DNA of 61,640 nucleotides from a virus (Duplodnaviria > Caudoviricetes): IMG/VR virus record IMGVR_UViG_3300032326_000597, positions 1-61,640 of that record; one strand, written 5' to 3'. Under the pieces are notes generated by a model. The model had not been told where the DNA came from, searched no databases, and saw only the letters and a list, made by a program, of their open reading frames with translations. The position numbers were made by a program, and so were the translations under genes. Positions 3,940 through 59,388 of the stretch are shown piece after piece; position 1 is the first letter of the stretch, and each line of letters starts with the position of its first letter.

Positions 3940-4256
3940 TTGGTTGGTGTATTAAAATAATTATTGGTTACTAAATAATCGTACAGGCTGTCGAGGTCTT
4001 TGCATATCTCGTCCTTGTGTTCGTTATGCGCCTTCATGTCCTCTCTGAGTTCATATAGGTACGCCTTCTCGTACATGAACCATGAGAACCAGTCCATGCC
4101 TTCCTTGGTCAGCACGGCCTCCCATAGGTGCGTGGTTACGTAGTATTCGGAATCCATGAACTCGTTGAGGTCGATGCCCATCTTGTAGGCCGAGCTGACC
4201 TTGTTCGACGTCTCCTTCATGCGCTCACACGCTTTCTTGAATGCTATCTTTTTCAT
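3936..4256 (-). CDS. hypothetical protein
   Basis: 106 aa, EG.DW.SWF.YE motif; coupled. Confidence 0.75.
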   Translation of the reverse strand: MKKIAFKKACERMKETSNKVSSAYKMGIDLNEFMDSEYYVTTHLWEAVLTKEGMDWFSWFMYEKAYLYELREDMKAHNEHKDEICKDLDSLYDYLVTNNYFNTPTK

Positions 4257-5258: not shown

Positions 5259-5564
5259 TTAATTGTAAGTTGTTTTTACTTCTTCCCACACCCAGCCGTT
5301 TCCGATTCGGTAGTAGGTTTGGCCGTCGATGGTGGTTGTCGGCACGACGTCGCTACATTGCTCGTCTCGGTCGGTTTCGATAAGTGTTTCACCTTCCCAC
5401 CTGAATGTGGTCGCGCTGTCCTCGTCGAATGGTTCAGTTGCAAGGAAGCGCATTACCTCCGCCTTGCTCAGGTATGGCATTTCCCATCCGTTCCACCGTT
5501 GTCCGTCCGTGTAACCATCGTAAACGTCGCTGATTACATCGATTGAAAATTTAGTTCTCTTCAT
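5259..5564 (-). CDS. acidic hypothetical protein
   Basis: G.RWNGW.MP...IG.GWVWEE. Confidence 0.75.
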   Translation of the reverse strand: MKRTKFSIDVISDVYDGYTDGQRWNGWEMPYLSKAEVMRFLATEPFDEDSATTFRWEGETLIETDRDEQCSDVVPTTTIDGQTYYRIGNGWVWEEVKTTYN

Positions 5565-13726: not shown

Positions 13727-13858
13727 TTACATTAGACTTACACATAGGATGAGGAGGTAATAAAATCCGACGCCGACGGCGATCATGATTAGGTAAGGTA
13801 AAAGGGTTTCAATTTCTTTGTTAGAAAGGATACCCAACAATTTGTTTTTTAGCTTCAT
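13727..13858 (-). CDS. 43 aa single-TM microprotein
   Basis: MKLKNKLLGILSNKEIETLLPYLIMIAVGVGFYYLLILCVSLM. Confidence 0.55.
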   Translation of the reverse strand: MKLKNKLLGILSNKEIETLLPYLIMIAVGVGFYYLLILCVSLM

Positions 13859-14156
13859 CTTCGTTATTGTTTGACCATAAATCTTTGGCTACATCAAGTA
13901 GCGAATTGAAGTTGTTTGACACGTATTGTGCCTCCACCTCGCAGCCCCATGGTGTTCCACTTGGACTAAGTAGCTCGTAGCTTACACCGGTTTCGGTGCT
14001 GTAGGTGTAGTAATCAACTTGTGCTTGGTAAATTGCAATGTGATCGGTTGGACCATTGTCGTGCCACCTTGAGATTGCATATACCTTCGACCCAATTGGG
14101 TAGGCTTGGAACGTCACTTGAGTTTGTGCGCCCTCTTGTGTTTTTGCTTTTTTCAT
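13821..14156 (-). CDS. hypothetical protein
   Basis: 111 aa, aaacgaaATG start. Confidence 0.75.
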   Translation of the reverse strand: MKKAKTQEGAQTQVTFQAYPIGSKVYAISRWHDNGPTDHIAIYQAQVDYYTYSTETGVSYELLSPSGTPWGCEVEAQYVSNNFNSLLDVAKDLWSNNNEDEAKKQIVGYPF

Positions 14157-14211
14157 TTCGTTTATTTCGTTTATTCTTGTAACAAAAAAGGTAAAAATTT
14201 GTTACAGTTAG

Positions 14212-14310
14212 TAGCCAGGGCAGGACTCGAACCTGTAAGTTTTTAGTTTAACGTCTAAAACACCTCGTAAGGCAAAAATTCCATTGCGTCTACCATTCCG
14301 CCACCTGACT
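14212..14310 (-). tRNA. tRNA-like element without a canonical anticodon arm
   Basis: AGTCAGG/CCTGGCT acceptor, GGCGGAATGGTAGACGC D-arm, GGTTCGAGTCC T-arm; central region forms unrelated hairpins. Confidence 0.65.
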
Positions 14311-14479: not shown

Positions 14480-14481
14480 TG

Positions 14482-14554
14482 TAGTCAGGACAGGATTCGA
14501 ACCTGTATCAATGCAGAGAGCGACTCCACAGCGTCACCGTTGCGCCACCTGACT
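14482..14554 (-). tRNA. tRNA-like element with aberrant anticodon loop (nominal CGC)
   Basis: AGTCAGG/CCTGACT acceptor, ACAGG TTCGAAT CCTGT T-arm; loop GTCGCTC lacks purine 37; no encoded CCA. Confidence 0.7.
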
Positions 14555-15347: not shown

Positions 15348-15534
15348 GTATTCCGTAGGTTGAGTTTACCCAAACCTTCACCTGGTCGCTTTCAAAGTGT
15401 CTGATATGACCGCCGTCGAGAAGCACAACTGTTATTTCGTCGTTTTCATACATCCCGCCGGGGTTAATGTACAGGATGTATCCGTCACCGAGTGGTGTTG
15501 TTACCGGGATCGGGTATGGAGGAAAGCTCATCAT
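15340..15534 (-). CDS. hypothetical protein
   Basis: PIPV.TPLGDG...Y...G...N...TV family pattern. Confidence 0.7.
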   Translation of the reverse strand: MMSFPPYPIPVTTPLGDGYILYINPGGMYENDEITVVLLDGGHIRHFESDQVKVWVNSTYGIHE

Positions 15535-16010
15535 TGCACAGGTTCAGTAGTTGTTGGATTTCCTGCTGCCTCATTTTCCTCAACGTCGGAAGGTTCTTCA
15601 TTATTATCTGCATCACCTCCATCTTCTTGCTCGGATGAGCTGTCTTCAGCTGTTCCGCCAGATACTCCGTCAGCGCTTGCTTGGTTCTTTTCATCTATTT
15701 GTCGTTTTATATCATCAACTCCGGTGTTTATCAAGGCCCAATACTCTACGGGCAGGGTTGCAAGGTTTTGAAGGGTGACTTCCATCAGTTCTACCGCGTT
15801 TAAATACGCCTCACCGCCCTGCACGTTCCCCAAAACGCCGTATATCGGCATCAGCTCACGTTCTAACTTGGCAACTAGGTTCTTTGAGTGCATCTTGAGG
15901 TCTTGTCGGAAGAACTTCAGCTCAACACATTCGTCGTGGCACTGCGCGTAGATTTGCTGTGCTGCTAATGCGGTCACTACCAACCGTCTTTTCTTTTCTT
16001 GTTCGTTCAT
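15531..16010 (-). CDS. hypothetical protein with acidic tail
   Basis: 159 aa; TATATTTG box at 16025-16032. Confidence 0.75.
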   Translation of the reverse strand: MNEQEKKRRLVVTALAAQQIYAQCHDECVELKFFRQDLKMHSKNLVAKLERELMPIYGVLGNVQGGEAYLNAVELMEVTLQNLATLPVEYWALINTGVDDIKRQIDEKNQASADGVSGGTAEDSSSEQEDGGDADNNEEPSDVEENEAAGNPTTTEPVQ

Positions 16011-16674: not shown

Positions 16675-17694
16675 TTACTTAATCTTTCCGTTCACGATTC
16701 GGTAGTTTGTAACCTCAAACTCCTCATTATCAAACACTTTCACGTGCGCGAAGCCGTGAGTAAACTTGTTGATCGGCATGTAGTCGGGGTGAAGCTCACA
16801 CAAACAAGCTACCGACCAACATGTTGTCACCTTCCCGTTGATGTTTGGCTCGGTATGCTCCGAGGTCTGGTGGTGGTGTCCGCAGATTGCGTTGTCCTTG
16901 GCCCGGAGATATAAACCACGGGCGATGTTCACCGGGCTGAACATGCTTGACCCAAACTCGTGGCCGTGAAGTGCTATTAGCTTGCCCATTTTTACAAGCT
17001 GCTTGTCTGGGATGAAGTTGATGTTGAGCTGCTTGAGATGCAGGATGGATTCCAAGGAAAATTCTTCAATTCCAACTAGATCGGACGCGTTGTTGATCAG
17101 ATAGTGGTCCCAACGAATGTCGTGGTTTCCTGCTTTGAAGTATATTGCCTGAGTAGGAAACAATTTCCGCAGCGTGTAGAGGAAGTCCCTTGCCATATAG
17201 ATTTCAGAGGCGAGGTCTCTCTTGCGTGGGTCTTTTTGGAAGCGGCTGATTGCGTAGAAGTCGATGAGGTCCCCATTGATGTAGATCGTGTTGACCTCAT
17301 TTTCGAGTCCGTACTTGAGCGCCGCTGTGAGAGCAGGGATGTTGTGATATGGTACGTGAATGTCGGTGAGAAATAGGATATCATTGTGGTTAACTGGGAA
17401 TTTATATGGGCTGTATTTTTTTTCCTTTGAGTCAGGCAACCCTAGTGGGTTACTGTCGGGAATCAGCTCATTAATGATATCCTCGAATGCGTTTGCGATG
17501 ACCTGCGGGTTCACCCGCGCCTTCTTTGCTGGTTCTGCTTTGTTGTTCTTCTTCCAGGCAAGAAACTGTCGTTTAAAAGACTCAAGCGTGATCCCGGACG
17601 TTACGTTATCATACTCTAATTCAATCTTTTTGCTTTGACTAAGGTCTCGCGTGTCGTTTAAGATGTTGCGATAGTTCTGTACGTTGTTTTTCAT
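16675..17694 (-). CDS. calcineurin-like metallophosphoesterase
   Basis: DIH, GD.ID, GNHD, HGHE, GHHH motifs. Confidence 0.9.
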   Translation of the reverse strand: MKNNVQNYRNILNDTRDLSQSKKIELEYDNVTSGITLESFKRQFLAWKKNNKAEPAKKARVNPQVIANAFEDIINELIPDSNPLGLPDSKEKKYSPYKFPVNHNDILFLTDIHVPYHNIPALTAALKYGLENEVNTIYINGDLIDFYAISRFQKDPRKRDLASEIYMARDFLYTLRKLFPTQAIYFKAGNHDIRWDHYLINNASDLVGIEEFSLESILHLKQLNINFIPDKQLVKMGKLIALHGHEFGSSMFSPVNIARGLYLRAKDNAICGHHHQTSEHTEPNINGKVTTCWSVACLCELHPDYMPINKFTHGFAHVKVFDNEEFEVTNYRIVNGKIK

Positions 17695-17736
17695 TAAGGT
17701 AGATATTTGCAAATATAATGAGTATCACCACGAAAG

Positions 17737-17828
17737 CAAAAACCGCCTCGCTTAGGAGACGGTTTTCACAAACGAAATGAATAAAACAAACTGAACTTGC
17801 GCTATAAAAGCACAACTCAGCAAATGTA
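17737..17828 (-). ncRNA. candidate sRNA (promoter, antisense seed, terminator)
   Basis: TACATTTG 17828-17821; seed UUCAUUUCGUUU; terminator aaaaccgtctc-ctaagc-gaggcggttttt. Confidence 0.5.
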
Positions 17829-17849
17829 TCGACAAACAATTTAGTTTGC

Positions 17850-18068
17850 TCACTTTCTTTTGATTACGATGACTTTATGCTTCTTTTCGTTATCATCGCT
17901 CTGCACCTTTATCTTCCTCCACATGTAATACTTAATTGGAAGGATGGATGCCACGATCAGAAACGAAGCAATCGCGCTTGGGTAGTTTTTCTCCCAAAGG
18001 GAAACTACAAACGCGATGACGAACGCAAACAGGAATGCTGTAAGTGTGATGTTGGGTAACTCCAACAT
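17850..18068 (-). CDS. two-TM membrane protein
   Basis: Two hydrophobic helices and basic tail; likely start MLELP. Confidence 0.65.
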   Translation of the reverse strand: MLELPNITLTAFLFAFVIAFVVSLWEKNYPSAIASFLIVASILPIKYYMWRKIKVQSDDNEKKHKVIVIKRK

Positions 18069-18513: not shown

Positions 18514-18766
18514 CTTCTATTTTTTTAAGTTCGTTAAAGTGTCCGCTGATCCAAAGGTACATATCTTTCCCCGTAAGCTCGTACAATCTTATGTTGATTA
18601 GCTTCATTAGGGACTTGTCACGGTCATATTTTTTCTTCGGCTTATGAACACCCGCCTTGGGGTATTCCATGTCGTCAGTGAGGAGCTTATGCCTCAGATT
18701 CCGAAGGTGCTGCAACTCGCTCTGGTCTGACGGTGTAGGCGGTAAGTATATCGGGATTCCGTTCAT
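18500..18766 (-). CDS. hypothetical protein
   Basis: 88 aa overlapping operon member. Confidence 0.65.
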   Translation of the reverse strand: MNGIPIYLPPTPSDQSELQHLRNLRHKLLTDDMEYPKAGVHKPKKKYDRDKSLMKLINIRLYELTGKDMYLWISGHFNELKKIEDGQN

Positions 18767-19172
18767 TGAAAAAGTCTAATAAAAGTTCTTGTCTTGTTTG
18801 GTCTAGGTCGGCAATGAAGTGACGTATCTTTTTTCTTCTTGCCGCGTTGTAGTCGTAGTCAACCTTTAGTGTTTTCAAGGCGTGAGAAACCGTTGCATGG
18901 TCCCTTTCAACAAGCCTGGCGACGTCCATAAGGCTTTTTGTAGTACACACCCTTACGGTTGTCATGAACATCTGCCGGGCAAATACTACGTCTCTAAACT
19001 TTCTCTTGCCCTTGATGTCTGCCACGGGTACATGGAAGTGTCTTCCAACCTTCTCTAACAACTCGTTTTCTTGTGCGTCTTCTACCTTGTGTAGGTACTC
19101 GTAAATCTTTGTGAACTCGGCCCGGTTTTGACTTGGGACCACGTTTATTAAGTCTTTGAATGTATATCTCAT
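18687..19172 (-). CDS. DnaA C-terminal (domain IV) HTH protein
   Basis: I.GK.K.R.VV.ARQ.FM...SL..VA....RDHATV.HA. Confidence 0.85.
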   Translation of the reverse strand: MRYTFKDLINVVPSQNRAEFTKIYEYLHKVEDAQENELLEKVGRHFHVPVADIKGKRKFRDVVFARQMFMTTVRVCTTKSLMDVARLVERDHATVSHALKTLKVDYDYNAARRKKIRHFIADLDQTRQELLLDFFNERNPDILTAYTVRPERVAAPSESEA

Positions 19173-19975: not shown

Positions 19976-21928
19976 TCATTCCCAATCCTCCCTATACCCG
20001 TTCGGGTGTCCTGGCTCCTCATTCCATTCCTTTGCGTCTTTAGAGTCTGTCCAGTTTCTGTTTGGTCTTATCACGGAAGGCTTCGGCTCTTCGATGTTAG
20101 ACTGAACGAATTTACCCTCGATCGCCCGTTGAAGGTAATCGACGCCCTCGAACGTAAACCTGCGGGTAGACCTTACAAGCTCAAAGTCAAAGAATCCCTT
20201 TATCCCAACGATCTTTTGTCTGCGGATCTTCTTGGAGTGAAACTCACACAGCGGACTTTCGGGAGCCGTCTGAGCAACAGGTCTGTGGTAGATAATAATA
20301 TTATCAGCCTTATTGTTCCACATAGCGCCATCAGCAAGGTCAAACACCTCCGGGCATGGGTAGTTTCCGTCGTCTCCCTTCCTCATCTTGTGCGGATGGA
20401 CCACGATGTCGAAGTACACGTTGTTCTTCCTTGCAAACCTTGTGCAGTCAGATAGAAATGTCTCAAGGTACTTGTCGCTACGCCCACCGCCCTTGCTATA
20501 GTCGTTTGCCATTTGGTTGAATGGGTCGATTACCACGCGGTCGATTCCATGTTTAATAATCATGCTTAGGAAAACTTCTTTCACGTAGTCAGGAGTCGGG
20601 CTTACGTTCTTTGGATACACCATGAAGATGTGTTTGCCAATCATATCATACACCTTCTTGTACGCATCGTAACTTGGTCTGTGGTAGTTGTTGGGTGTGC
20701 AATCCTTCCCGAAGTAAATTTCGACCAGATCATGATAGAACTGTTCAGCAGGCAACTCCTCAGGGGTGAAGATGGCAACCTTCTCTCCAAACTTTACCAT
20801 GCGGAATATCATCTCCCATTTCATGAACGATGACTTACCATAGTTTCCAATTCCGGAAACAATTGTTAATTCTCCCTTGACTCTTTTGAAGTGTTTGTCT
20901 AGAAGCGGAACGCCAAGCGGCATGGCTGCCTGATAGCCCTTGTGGTAAATCTCAGACGCCTGTTCGAATACCTCTTCAGCGTAAATGACATCTTCTGCGG
21001 CGATATTCTCCGCATCTTCTGCGGTGATTACGATATTAATCTCCGCATTTGTAGACTTGGATACAAGCTGATCCTTAGTAAACTCGGCGGTATTCCACTG
21101 ATTCATGTTGGCCCGGTACGCGCTGCGGATGGCTTGCCTGCATTCCTTTTGGCTAAAGCTAGAGTTTGGAGTAACGTAGGTCATTATTAGGTTGTAGCAG
21201 GTCTCCTCAATCATCCCAAACCGGCAACAACTAGCAGCCAACTTGAACACGAAGTGATTCCTCTCCCCTTCACGGAACGCATCACCCTTGGATGTCATCC
21301 ACGTCAGAAGGTTTTGGAATATCTTGTCGTCGTCGTTTATGGTTTCAGTAGTTGTCTGTTGTGGCAACCTTCTGTCTTCCTTTTTTACAGGCAGCTTTGT
21401 GTATGTTTCGGCGTTTTCGTTATACCAAAGATTGGTATCATACGACTCAAAGCATAGGCGGGAAACATTTCTACCAGTCTTGTCAATGTCGGGCATCTCT
21501 TCCATTAGTGCATCAAAGTGTTCCTTGTGCTTGGTTTTCCACTCAATTTGGACGAGCGCTTTTAAGCCCTTTCCTGAGGGTGATTCCCAGACAGCGGTAA
21601 TATACCTCACCGAACACAATTCGCTTCGTTTTTGGGCCATATCCGCAACGTTATCGAAGTCCAACACGATGTATCCGGAGTGTTCGAGCAGCTCAGAGTC
21701 TTTTCTTTTGGAAAAGGTGCCACTGAAACAAACTGCTGGAAGTTTCTTTTTTAACTCGTCCGCCTCTTTCTTGGTCTTGGCTTCCCTCGCCTTCTCAACA
21801 AGTGCCTTTGACTTTCCAGTCCTAATTCGTTCAAGTGCGCCCAGTACACTAATTGTGTGTCCTTGCAGGTCATTGAAGTCTTTGTAGATGGATACCTTAC
21901 CATTTATTCCTTGGGTCATTTGGGTCAT
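19976..21928 (-). CDS. primase-helicase (BT4734/VirE-N-like, PriCT-1, SF4 helicase)
   Basis: LKKKLPAV.FSG.F, LDFD, SPSG.GLK, GERN, Walker A GIGNYGKS, IDPFN, VVHP.K. Confidence 0.9.
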   Translation of the reverse strand: MTQMTQGINGKVSIYKDFNDLQGHTISVLGALERIRTGKSKALVEKAREAKTKKEADELKKKLPAVCFSGTFSKRKDSELLEHSGYIVLDFDNVADMAQKRSELCSVRYITAVWESPSGKGLKALVQIEWKTKHKEHFDALMEEMPDIDKTGRNVSRLCFESYDTNLWYNENAETYTKLPVKKEDRRLPQQTTTETINDDDKIFQNLLTWMTSKGDAFREGERNHFVFKLAASCCRFGMIEETCYNLIMTYVTPNSSFSQKECRQAIRSAYRANMNQWNTAEFTKDQLVSKSTNAEINIVITAEDAENIAAEDVIYAEEVFEQASEIYHKGYQAAMPLGVPLLDKHFKRVKGELTIVSGIGNYGKSSFMKWEMIFRMVKFGEKVAIFTPEELPAEQFYHDLVEIYFGKDCTPNNYHRPSYDAYKKVYDMIGKHIFMVYPKNVSPTPDYVKEVFLSMIIKHGIDRVVIDPFNQMANDYSKGGGRSDKYLETFLSDCTRFARKNNVYFDIVVHPHKMRKGDDGNYPCPEVFDLADGAMWNNKADNIIIYHRPVAQTAPESPLCEFHSKKIRRQKIVGIKGFFDFELVRSTRRFTFEGVDYLQRAIEGKFVQSNIEEPKPSVIRPNRNWTDSKDAKEWNEEPGHPNGYREDWE

Positions 21929-22619
21929 AATTGTAGTTAGTTTGTTTTGTATTTGTATTCGTATTCGTTGTTTCGTCTTCCCATCTTCTGTCGCGAAGAT
22001 ATCGTATCGGGTCCTTCCAGTATTTGCGCTCGCGACCATTCTTGTGGTTTCCCATGCCTTCTACTGCTAGGGTTCGGTCCTCATCAGATAGTTTATTCCA
22101 AACAGCAAGGGTTTGTTTCTTATCCACCTTCTTGTCATACATCAACCAAAACTGCTCGAAAGAATACTTACTTTCTTCTTTTACTTTATTCTTTTTATTA
22201 TGTGAGCATTCCTGAGCAGGGGTATGCTCATTTTTGAGCAGGGGGTATGCAGGTTTTTGAGCAGGGGTATGATCAAAAAACTCATCTTCTTCATTTTCAG
22301 ACATTGGTATTTCGGGAGTAACCGTTCTGCTCAAAATATCAGCATCTGGATTTATCGTTAAACATCTTACCTCAACCTCATTTCGATTATTGAGTTTAAC
22401 TATTCTCCCCAAAACACCCTTCTGTTCGAGGTCGGCAATTACGCGACGAACACTATGCTTGGATATACCAAGGCACTCACCCAGGTAATGGTTTGAAGCG
22501 AAACAATAACCTTTGATGTTTGATAGATTTGATATGACACCTATGAGTAATTTCTCAGTAGATGACAATTCCTTGCTAAGCAGCACACTTGCAGGGATAA
22601 TTGAATATTGATTGTGCAT
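21897..22619 (-). CDS. phage replication initiator (N-terminal wHTH)
   Basis: IPA.VL....LS..EKL...GYCFASN.YL; FEQFW..Y.KK; internal iterons. Confidence 0.85.
   Translation of the reverse strand: MHNQYSIIPASVLLSKELSSTEKLLIGVISNLSNIKGYCFASNHYLGECLGISKHSVRRVIADLEQKGVLGRIVKLNNRNEVEVRCLTINPDADILSRTVTPEIPMSENEEDEFFDHTPAQKPAYPLLKNEHTPAQECSHNKKNKVKEESKYSFEQFWLMYDKKVDKKQTLAVWNKLSDEDRTLAVEGMGNHKNGRERKYWKDPIRYLRDRRWEDETTNTNTNTKQTNYNYDPNDPRNKW
22203..22275. repeat. iterons within the initiator gene (probable origin)
   Basis: TGAGCAGGGG(G)TATG at 22213, 22235, 22258; AT-rich tract 22170-22200. Confidence 0.75.
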
Positions 22620-22624
22620 AAGAT

Positions 22625-22746
22625 AAAAAAAGCTCGCAAGAACCACTTTGCGAGCTTTTGAGTTGGTTATGATTTGTAACCACCTTCCAACCCTAGTTTA
22701 CTGTGGTTCGTTAGCAAACGAGGGGTGAAATATTTTGGCAAACATA
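22625..22746 (-). promoter_or_regulatory. promoter and attenuator-like leader of the initiator
   Basis: TATGTTTG 22746-22739; terminator aaaagctcgcaa-loop-ttgcgagctttttt with loop GTGGTTC complementary to upstream GAACCAC. Confidence 0.65.
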
Positions 22747-58737: not shown

Positions 58738-59388
58738 ATGATAGAACTGAAAATAGCGGATCCAACCCCGCATGAATTAGGTGAATATAGAGTGCTAATT
58801 AAGGAGCTGAAGGAAAGGTTCCCAGATGCAACTGTACTTGTTGACAGGGAGTATTCAGATTACGCGATTAGTATTACATCAATATGGATAGACGGTGACA
58901 AACGCACAGACTCGCACTCCGCAATTTACCCCTCGGTTCCCAACAGGGGGACGGCGCAAATCAAGGCGGACATTCTCTCCCTTACCTTCGCTATGCGTGA
59001 ACTTGGGTTTGATATTAAGTTTTTGGACAGCGATCCGGTCATTCGCGAGAAGGTTTCGATAACCCGTGGTAAGCTCGATTCTTGCATATCTCTTCGTCAG
59101 ATGGTGGAACTGCTTGAAGAAGCGAACCACGAAAAGCTAGACGAGGTAAAGATTCTGATTGAGAACAAACGAAAGCAGGGCGGTCGTCCTAGCAAGAAGT
59201 CTGTAATCGATTTCATCTTTTCGGGAGCTAGGGAAGAGAAGCGTGGACAGGCTGTACGCACCGGCCCGGAGTGGGCGCGGGTCAAGATGGAGTGGCGTGA
59301 CAAGTTTCCTACATCTAAGTATGTGAAAATGTACAAAAGTCTCGACGAGTTTTGTACCTTTGCTTCTGACGCCGAGTGTAAATCATGA
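58738..59388 (+). CDS. hypothetical protein
   Basis: 216 aa with own TATATTTG box. Confidence 0.75.
   Translation: MIELKIADPTPHELGEYRVLIKELKERFPDATVLVDREYSDYAISITSIWIDGDKRTDSHSAIYPSVPNRGTAQIKADILSLTFAMRELGFDIKFLDSDPVIREKVSITRGKLDSCISLRQMVELLEEANHEKLDEVKILIENKRKQGGRPSKKSVIDFIFSGAREEKRGQAVRTGPEWARVKMEWRDKFPTSKYVKMYKSLDEFCTFASDAECKS

Follow-up and report, generated by a model that had tools for sequence, protein, structure and literature searches.

A short minus-strand stretch behind the gene for a 72-aa membrane protein of an uncultured phage combines a promoter box, a conserved U-rich sequence and a terminator, and the complement of the U-rich sequence recurs at start codons of the phage's own genes. 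The question raised by this locus is whether it encodes a small RNA that acts in trans on those genes, or whether its features serve some other purpose. The window, which is the whole stretch of DNA analysed, is an entire IMG/VR virus record of 61,640 bp that is estimated to be 94% complete. Its left arm, from about 22.7 kb down to position 1, is minus-strand and carries the replication and early genes, including the following.

21897–22646, minus strand: replication initiator gene
19976–22039, minus strand: primase/helicase gene with a BT4734-like domain
18687–19172, minus strand: gene for a DnaA_C-type HTH protein
16675–17694, minus strand: metallophosphoesterase gene, with its start codon at 17694, downstream of the element

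No DNA-level match of the window was found in the phage collection. The nearest isolated phages as judged by the primase, which are distant at 24–38% identity, infect Flavobacteriia. In the available text of a study of Bacteroidota, TAnnTTTG is given as the −7 promoter consensus of this phylum, the −33 motif is described as absent in Flavobacterium, and gene starts are A-rich and free of Shine-Dalgarno (SD) sequences (PMC7366714). A total of 21 TAnnTTTGC boxes are present in the window against 11.7 expected, a number reached by none of 100 shuffles, and several of the early genes are preceded by such a box. The carriers of the element are a group of uncultured phages with Bacteroidota-type hosts.

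The element itself spans positions 17816 to 17735 of the minus strand. Its parts and its immediate surroundings, in the order in which they are met on this strand, are as follows.

17852–17850, minus strand: TGA stop codon of the upstream 72-aa membrane-protein ORF
17828–17821, minus strand: −7 promoter box TACATTTG, of the TAnnTTTG type, within the wider GATACATTTGC at 17830–17820
17815–17797, minus strand: 5' hairpin H1, of 6–7 bp with a loop of 4–5, from folding and comparison
17796–17767, minus strand: unpaired U-rich seed GUUCAGUUUGUUUUAUUCAUUUCGUUUGUG, 30 nt, containing CAU, from conservation and folding
17766–17735, minus strand: intrinsic terminator, a hairpin of 11–14 bp followed by a U-run, from folding and comparison
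17717–17709, minus strand: separate promoter box TATATTTGC of the metallophosphoesterase gene, with a column identity of 0.94

The minus-strand promoter box and terminator enclosing about 80 nt that were reported in the preliminary description are both present at this site, and the plus-strand letters of 17770–17790 are AAACGAAATGAATAAAACAAA, as given there. The core TACATTTGC of the promoter box is invariant across all relatives in which the region is present, while no −33 TTTG was found at the usual distance from the TACATTTG box. The predicted RNA ends, 17816 and 17735, are taken from the box and the U-run and hold to within a few nucleotides. An RNA of 87 nt folds at −28.5 kcal/mol into the hairpin, the open stretch and the terminator (z = −4.97), and none of 200 shuffles folds as well. 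A terminator scan of the window missed the hairpin at 17766–17735 and gave the 5' hairpin at 17815–17797 instead. The T-run of the terminator supplies a TTTG 19 nt upstream of the box at 17717–17709. As a separate observation, this metallophosphoesterase promoter box sits within a perfect 14-nt palindrome, ATATTTGCAAATAT, at 17701–17714.

A protein search with the metallophosphoesterase gave 39 viral loci with 80–99% amino-acid identity. The element is upstream of this gene in every locus long enough to include it, always between the same two genes; two contigs (L003 and L020) end before the region and a third (L021) ends inside the element. The covariance model, built from 27 sequences, has exactly one strong match (87–110 bits) in 38 out of 40 sources with the rest at noise level, and the two misses are the contigs that end before the region. 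The seed 23-mer is present as a single copy in each of 35 viral contigs, and a search of 185,579 species genomes found neither it nor its complement. A metagenome scan for the promoter-hairpin pattern returned six stretches, all of them chance matches that lack the seed.

The conservation is unevenly spread over the element. Expressed as the mean pairwise column identity among 30 distinct sequences, it reaches 0.99 in the promoter box and 0.96 in the seed, in which 24 of the 30 columns are invariant, with 0.67 and 0.71 in the 5' hairpin and the terminator. Codon positions 1, 2 and 3 of the metallophosphoesterase gene have identities of 0.77, 0.83 and 0.50, and the third codon positions of the upstream 72-aa ORF have 0.39. 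Conservation is thus higher in the unpaired stretch than at the neighbouring positions that determine a protein sequence, and the element is far more conserved in the relatives than expected by chance.

Pairing in the stems is kept in 97.8% of 493 cells, compared with 39–56% in slid controls, and neither the paired share nor the covariation score is reached by any of 500 column shuffles; the alignment behind these values was fitted to the covariance model, and the sequences, of which 29–30 are distinct, are related and represent fewer independent events. Three stem pairs show three pair types each. In H1, where 94.6% of cells are paired, columns 14–22 are UG13/UA9/CG7 and columns 15–21 are UA11/GC9/UG8; in the terminator, where 100% of cells are paired across the relatives, columns 68–78 are CG13/UA9/UG7. 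Changes on both sides were found in only 2 out of 17 stem pairs, which is matched by 166 of 500 shuffles. G·U pairs, which would be A·C on the plus strand, make up 69 of the 493 cells, and the structure therefore belongs to the minus-strand RNA. When folded singly, 28 of 29 distinct RNAs share the hairpin, the open seed and the terminator, the exception being the truncated L021, and the mean unpaired probability of the seed over the 29 is 0.87. An outer helix proposed by RNAalifold, GCUGAG/UUCAG, was set aside, being invariant and probably partly upstream of the transcription start.

An ORF that overlaps the element (17752–17853 in the window) is open in all 30 distinct sequences and is 29–54 aa long. 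It starts with GTG in the window and with ATG in the relatives, overlapping the upstream stop codon. Over the promoter box, the invariant bases translate as LLIHLL in one set of relatives and as VDTFAE in another; over the seed, three frames are in use among the relatives, and the ends of the ORF differ. Since the same invariant bases are read in different frames, the element is not coding and its conservation is at the nucleotide level. The U-rich seed is free of stop codons in every frame, so the openness of the ORF is uninformative. The discrete minus-strand sRNA gene of the preliminary description is thus upheld as a conserved, structured, non-coding element with a −7 box, a seed and a terminator, from which a separate transcript is predicted. 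It is likely that this is a real and new gene for a minus-strand non-coding RNA, a reading that the comparison with 37 related viral contigs supports well.

The possible partners of the seed in this genome, all of them at minus-strand gene starts, are listed here with the promoter box of one of the genes.

16019–16006, minus strand: first proposed target, leader and start of gene 15531–16010, AUAAACGAAAUGAA, with the AUG at 16010–16008
16032–16024, minus strand: TAnnTTTGC box of gene 15531–16010
14165–14143, minus strand: second proposed target, leader and start of gene 13821–14156, a tandem AAACGAAAU AAACGAAAUG...
5568–5560, minus strand: third match, start of gene 5259–5564, CGAAAUGAA, a 9-nt run

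Matches to the starts of 13821–14156 (19 out of 21, with one G:U), 15531–16010 (12 out of 12) and 5259–5564 (9 nt) had been noted beforehand, and are correct. The first target has 12 Watson-Crick pairs with the seed, or 14 counting G·U, and a cofold ddG of −18.1 kcal/mol in which both hairpins of the sRNA are kept. The promoter box of this gene is 15 nt before its ATG, which means that the leader is very short and that a duplex from −10 to +5 would leave almost none of it free. The second target has the best RNAduplex energy of the 100 TIRs (−23.5) and a cofold ddG of −20.6 kcal/mol, again with both hairpins kept. The 9-nt run at 5259–5564 is at the level of chance and this gene has no homologue in the five whole relatives; it is therefore excluded from the system, contrary to the earlier proposal.

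Whether such matches are better than those of shuffled sequences has an answer in two parts. The exact 10-mer AAACGAAATG is present at only three sites in the window, which are the seed antisense and the starts of 15531–16010 and 13821–14156. Dinucleotide-shuffled seeds, however, reach the best RNAduplex energy in 22 out of 300 cases, and ranks 2 to 4 in 3–6 out of 300. An exact Watson-Crick run of at least 12 nt over the AUG is found at one TIR in 123 of 2000 shuffles and at two TIRs in 33 of 2000; if the AUG is not required, the figures are 128 and 18 of 1000. The complementarity within this genome is borderline when set against composition-matched shuffles. The U/G-rich seed pairs promiscuously with purine-rich starts. 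Its 5' half matches the window three times at up to three mismatches, where 1.2 matches are expected, and 14 of 100 shuffles give as many; no partner beyond chance was found in the window for this invariant half.

The relatives add to this picture. In five whole relatives of 62–70 kb, AAACGAAATGA is present in 3, 2, 3, 2 and 0 copies (0 for the reversed control), and only at the seed antisense and at the starts of the 15531 and 13821 genes. In the 9-kb loci, the 12-mer with one mismatch allowed is found almost only at five kinds of site.

Seed antisense
Start of the 15531 family
Start of the 13821 family
Start of an unrelated 40-aa gene (loci L009, L013, L018 and L025)
Start of the DnaA_C-HTH gene (loci L030 and L040)

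With the pairing measured against each phage's own seed, 9 or more Watson-Crick pairs span the AUG of the 15531 family in 32 out of 34 loci. The contiguous pairing of this family is lost in L009 and L018, where it is down to 4 Watson-Crick pairs. By run length, the family is first or second among 88–116 TIRs in all five whole relatives, and by RNAduplex energy it ranks 4, 2, 2, 5 and below 6 in these. Its leader (−14 to −1) has an identity of 0.87, compared with 0.61 at third codon positions. Among homologues of the 13821 family, ACAAACGAAAUGAA with 14 Watson-Crick pairs is present at 11 of 35 candidate starts, the others having 4–13 pairs. The comparison of seed and target that had been suggested as a check is therefore divided in its outcome: the pairing is kept at the 15531 and 13821 families, but no compensatory changes were found among the relatives, where the seed variants AAUCAU (7 loci), a U insertion (3) and GUUGUG (4) are unmatched in the targets. 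The motif marks just one or two genes per genome, and aaacgaaAUG is therefore not a general initiation context shared by a set of genes, as had been thought.

Two further genes deserve mention. A 216-aa gene on the plus strand (58738–59388) is a weak candidate only, being 13th by RNAduplex in the window; its homologues rank 1, 3 and 5 by RNAduplex in three of the five relatives (G002, G003 and G005). It has its own TATATTTGC box, it matched no family, and its leader in some relatives resembles ACAAACGAAAT, offset from the ATG. A 331-aa protein encoded on the minus strand at 4253–5248 matches Cas4-domain / RecE-like exonuclease PHROGs, and the start of its gene in one relative (G001) has a 12-nt run with the seed.

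The reading preferred here is that a host-type TAnnTTTG promoter of its own would drive a trans-acting sRNA of about 80 nt, whose sequence would also serve as the 3' UTR of the gene for the upstream 72-aa membrane protein. In this RNA, 30 nt of unstructured, U-rich sequence would separate a 5' hairpin from an intrinsic terminator. It is the 3' half of these 30 nt (UUCAUUUCGUUUGU) that would pair with about −10 to +5 of the short leaders of early mRNAs, placing its CAU opposite the start codon, and would do so in at least two of them, those of the 15531–16010 and 13821–14156 families. In an SD-less host with A-rich leaders, ribosomes would find their entire landing site occupied by the duplex, and translation would fall, probably along with mRNA stability. 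The element probably represents a new phage sRNA family that acts as a repressor at initiation regions. The full statement, that the sRNA represses these two early genes by covering their initiation regions, draws on conserved complementarity and could equally prove right or wrong. Transcription from this box, the ends of the RNA, its binding and the sign of the regulation are all predictions from sequence, and a search of sequencing runs listed no RNA run that carries the element. The silencing put forward in the preliminary description is a role that such an RNA might play; the timing switch proposed there finds no support in these results.

The conservation extends beyond the element on its upstream side, where two more features are found.

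17876–17850, minus strand: last 27 nt of the 72-aa ORF, AAAGTCATCGTAATCAAAAGAAAGTGA, invariant including synonymous sites
17849–17831, minus strand: possible small hairpin H0, weak, lying after the upstream stop codon and before the promoter box

The AAAGTCATCGTAATCAAAAGAAAGTGA stretch has an identity of 0.97, compared with 0.39 at third positions elsewhere in that ORF, and occurs once in the window. Pairing in H0 is present in 87.7% of cells against 28–47% in slid controls; changes on both sides are seen in only two cells, and H0 forms only weakly in L009 and L013. The sequence at 17850–17876 may serve the promoter as upstream DNA, or belong to a longer precursor RNA. Because the conserved island runs into the upstream ORF, the functional unit may be longer than the element or may act as DNA. 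This bears on a rather unlikely reading in which there is no separate sRNA, only the upstream gene's terminator and 3' UTR together with DNA-level signals, such as an operator for a phage protein that recognises ACAAACGAAAT either way, or the upstream elements of two promoters. In favour of this reading, synonymous sites are conserved over these 27 nt, the motif lies just downstream of the promoter box of 15531–16010 in a position typical for a repressor, GTTTGT is present twice in the seed, and several HTH proteins are encoded nearby. An operator, however, would have no need of the ATG in the motif, which is the actual start codon of unrelated genes in every target. In addition, the flanking stems keep their pairing through changes and have G·U pairs that fit one strand only, and the invariant TAnnTTTG box is well placed to start a transcript that ends at the terminator.

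It is unlikely, although the sRNA of the preferred reading would remain real, that its main partners are elsewhere, either host mRNAs with A-rich starts or a protein that binds single-stranded RNA, and that the matches in the phage are incidental or secondary. The whole 30-nt seed is invariant, yet only about 14 nt of it pair with the phage leaders, its 5' half is without a partner beyond chance in the window, and shuffled U-rich seeds pair nearly as well with the phage starts. Known phage sRNAs often act on host genes, according to the available text of a review (PMC12197685). Against this are the leaders that carry the motif, which are conserved, and the absence of the motif from any other site in the whole relatives; the species genomes searched also contain neither the seed 23-mer nor its complement. 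A broader and quite improbable version is that of a general anti-initiation RNA for SD-less translation. The whole 30-nt stretch, with CAU at its centre, would then pair with many A-rich leaders and their AUG, with host mRNAs included through the 5' half, so that the phage would reprogramme translation at takeover. Among its own early genes, those with the ACAAACGAAAUG leader would bind the RNA most tightly and be kept back.

There is very little probability that the element acts in cis, as an RNA that governs read-through into the phosphoesterase operon in the manner of an attenuator leader or of an antitermination site of the put or nut type. The promoter, hairpin, conserved single strand, terminator and next gene do follow one another in this order on the minus strand, but a conserved promoter belonging to the downstream gene itself follows the terminator directly, the loop of the hairpin lacks conservation, and an alternative antiterminator fold is absent from the ensembles. 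A small hydrophobic protein of 29–33 aa is hardly credible, in that the open frame in all 30 distinct sequences, its ATGA/GTGA overlap and A-rich leader and the AQVQFVLFISFV with which most sequences end are outweighed by frames, ends and lengths that vary among relatives, by invariant synonymous sites and by a seed whose openness in any frame says nothing.

To our knowledge, phage-encoded base-pairing sRNAs are known almost only from enterobacterial (pro)phages, and riboregulation in Bacteroidota is only beginning to be charted, with GibS and FopS. GibS of Bacteroides thetaiotaomicron is described, in the available text, as having a conserved single-stranded seed that pairs with SD-less start regions and represses the mRNAs (PMC7366714). 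FopS has a single-stranded 5' stretch and a terminator, a copy is reported in a Bacteroides phage, and the family is stated to have been deposited in Rfam, again in the text available (PMC11697453). The element shares with both the host phylum, the conserved unstructured seed and the Rho-independent terminator, and it would share with GibS the pairing at start-codon regions of SD-less mRNAs. It differs from both in that its seed is internal, behind a 5' hairpin, in that it is encoded by the phage, and in that its proposed targets are early genes of that phage itself. Experimental proof exists for GibS and FopS, whereas the element is known from sequence comparison. A further difference is that the element is without a match to any Rfam 15 family model: at the gathering score, the only matches in the window are two tRNA matches, and at E values up to 10 the best local match (E = 0.15) is an unrelated leader.

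The c4 antisense RNA covers the ribosome binding site of its target and is cut from the same transcript as that target, in the context of lysogenic immunity in a proteobacterial host. In phages P1 and P7 its trans action is directed at an mRNA of the phage itself and blocks icd and ant, as far as the available text describes it (PMC8198154), and it is family RF01695 in a table of another partly available source (PMC2864571). This family is not among the Rfam matches of the element even at E values up to 10. The likeness is that of a short phage-encoded RNA with an action on the phage's own mRNA, which is what is proposed for the element; in contrast to c4, the element has its own promoter box, its proposed targets are downstream at distances of 1.7 and 3.6 kb, and signs of lysogeny are lacking. 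MicL and DapZ of the enterobacteria are sRNAs derived from 3' UTRs with an internal promoter, and are Hfq-dependent host sRNAs of Proteobacteria. The element resembles them in its position directly after a stop codon, in sharing the terminator of the upstream mRNA and in having its promoter at the end of that gene; it differs in being phage-borne, where they are Hfq-dependent sRNAs of the host. DicF, an E. coli prophage sRNA, pairs with the ftsZ initiation region and acts on host genes with Hfq, according to the text available (PMC12197685). It is like the element in its phage origin and in the action in trans and the pairing at an initiation region that are proposed for the element, and unlike it in its host targets and in Hfq.

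In the available text of a 2025 review of phage sRNAs, the terms 'Bacteroid', 'Flavobacter' and 'crAss' do not appear (PMC12197685). A literature search found no Bacteroidota phage sRNA that was proposed to act on the phage's own genes, the nearest case being the phage copy of FopS in the available text (PMC11697453). The kind of RNA is known; what is new is the family, together with its host phylum and its targets. The element is a well-defined conserved candidate with named targets and a clear mechanism for translation without Shine-Dalgarno pairing, and although the phage is uncultured the proposed regulation could be tested by simple reporter and binding assays in laboratory Bacteroidota.

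The product of 15531–16010 is a helical protein with an acidic tail, for which the AlphaFold model (pLDDT 55.6) has four helices and a disordered acidic tail. It has 172 homologues, all of them 'hypothetical' save one with an odd source name, and no Pfam or PHROG family and no usable Atlas match was found for it. The family has an invariant QQIYAQCHDEC motif in its helical N-domain, whereas the tail is variable and very acidic. For the product of 13821–14156, the Atlas matches are unnamed viral clusters only.

Directly before the AAACGAAAT leader there is a hairpin, TGTAACAAA...TTTGTTACA, at 14166–14200 on the minus strand. In the relatives, the same cassette of hairpin and AAACGAAAT leader precedes different genes, of either 93–96 aa or 40 aa, which suggests gene replacement behind a fixed hairpin-plus-leader cassette. 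A tRNA-like match of 99 nt at 14212–14310 (minus strand) scores 29.7 bits against an Rfam gathering score of 29, ARAGORN makes no call there, and the match adjoins a tRNA-Ala(CGC) at 14481–14554. Five consecutive small genes on the minus strand (1023–2062, within 824–2274) have Shine-Dalgarno-like leaders, GGAGGTGAYRAATG, which are odd in a phage whose other genes have A-rich, SD-less starts. The relatives carry paralogous 'TAVEWL' small proteins in the region that corresponds to 824–2274.
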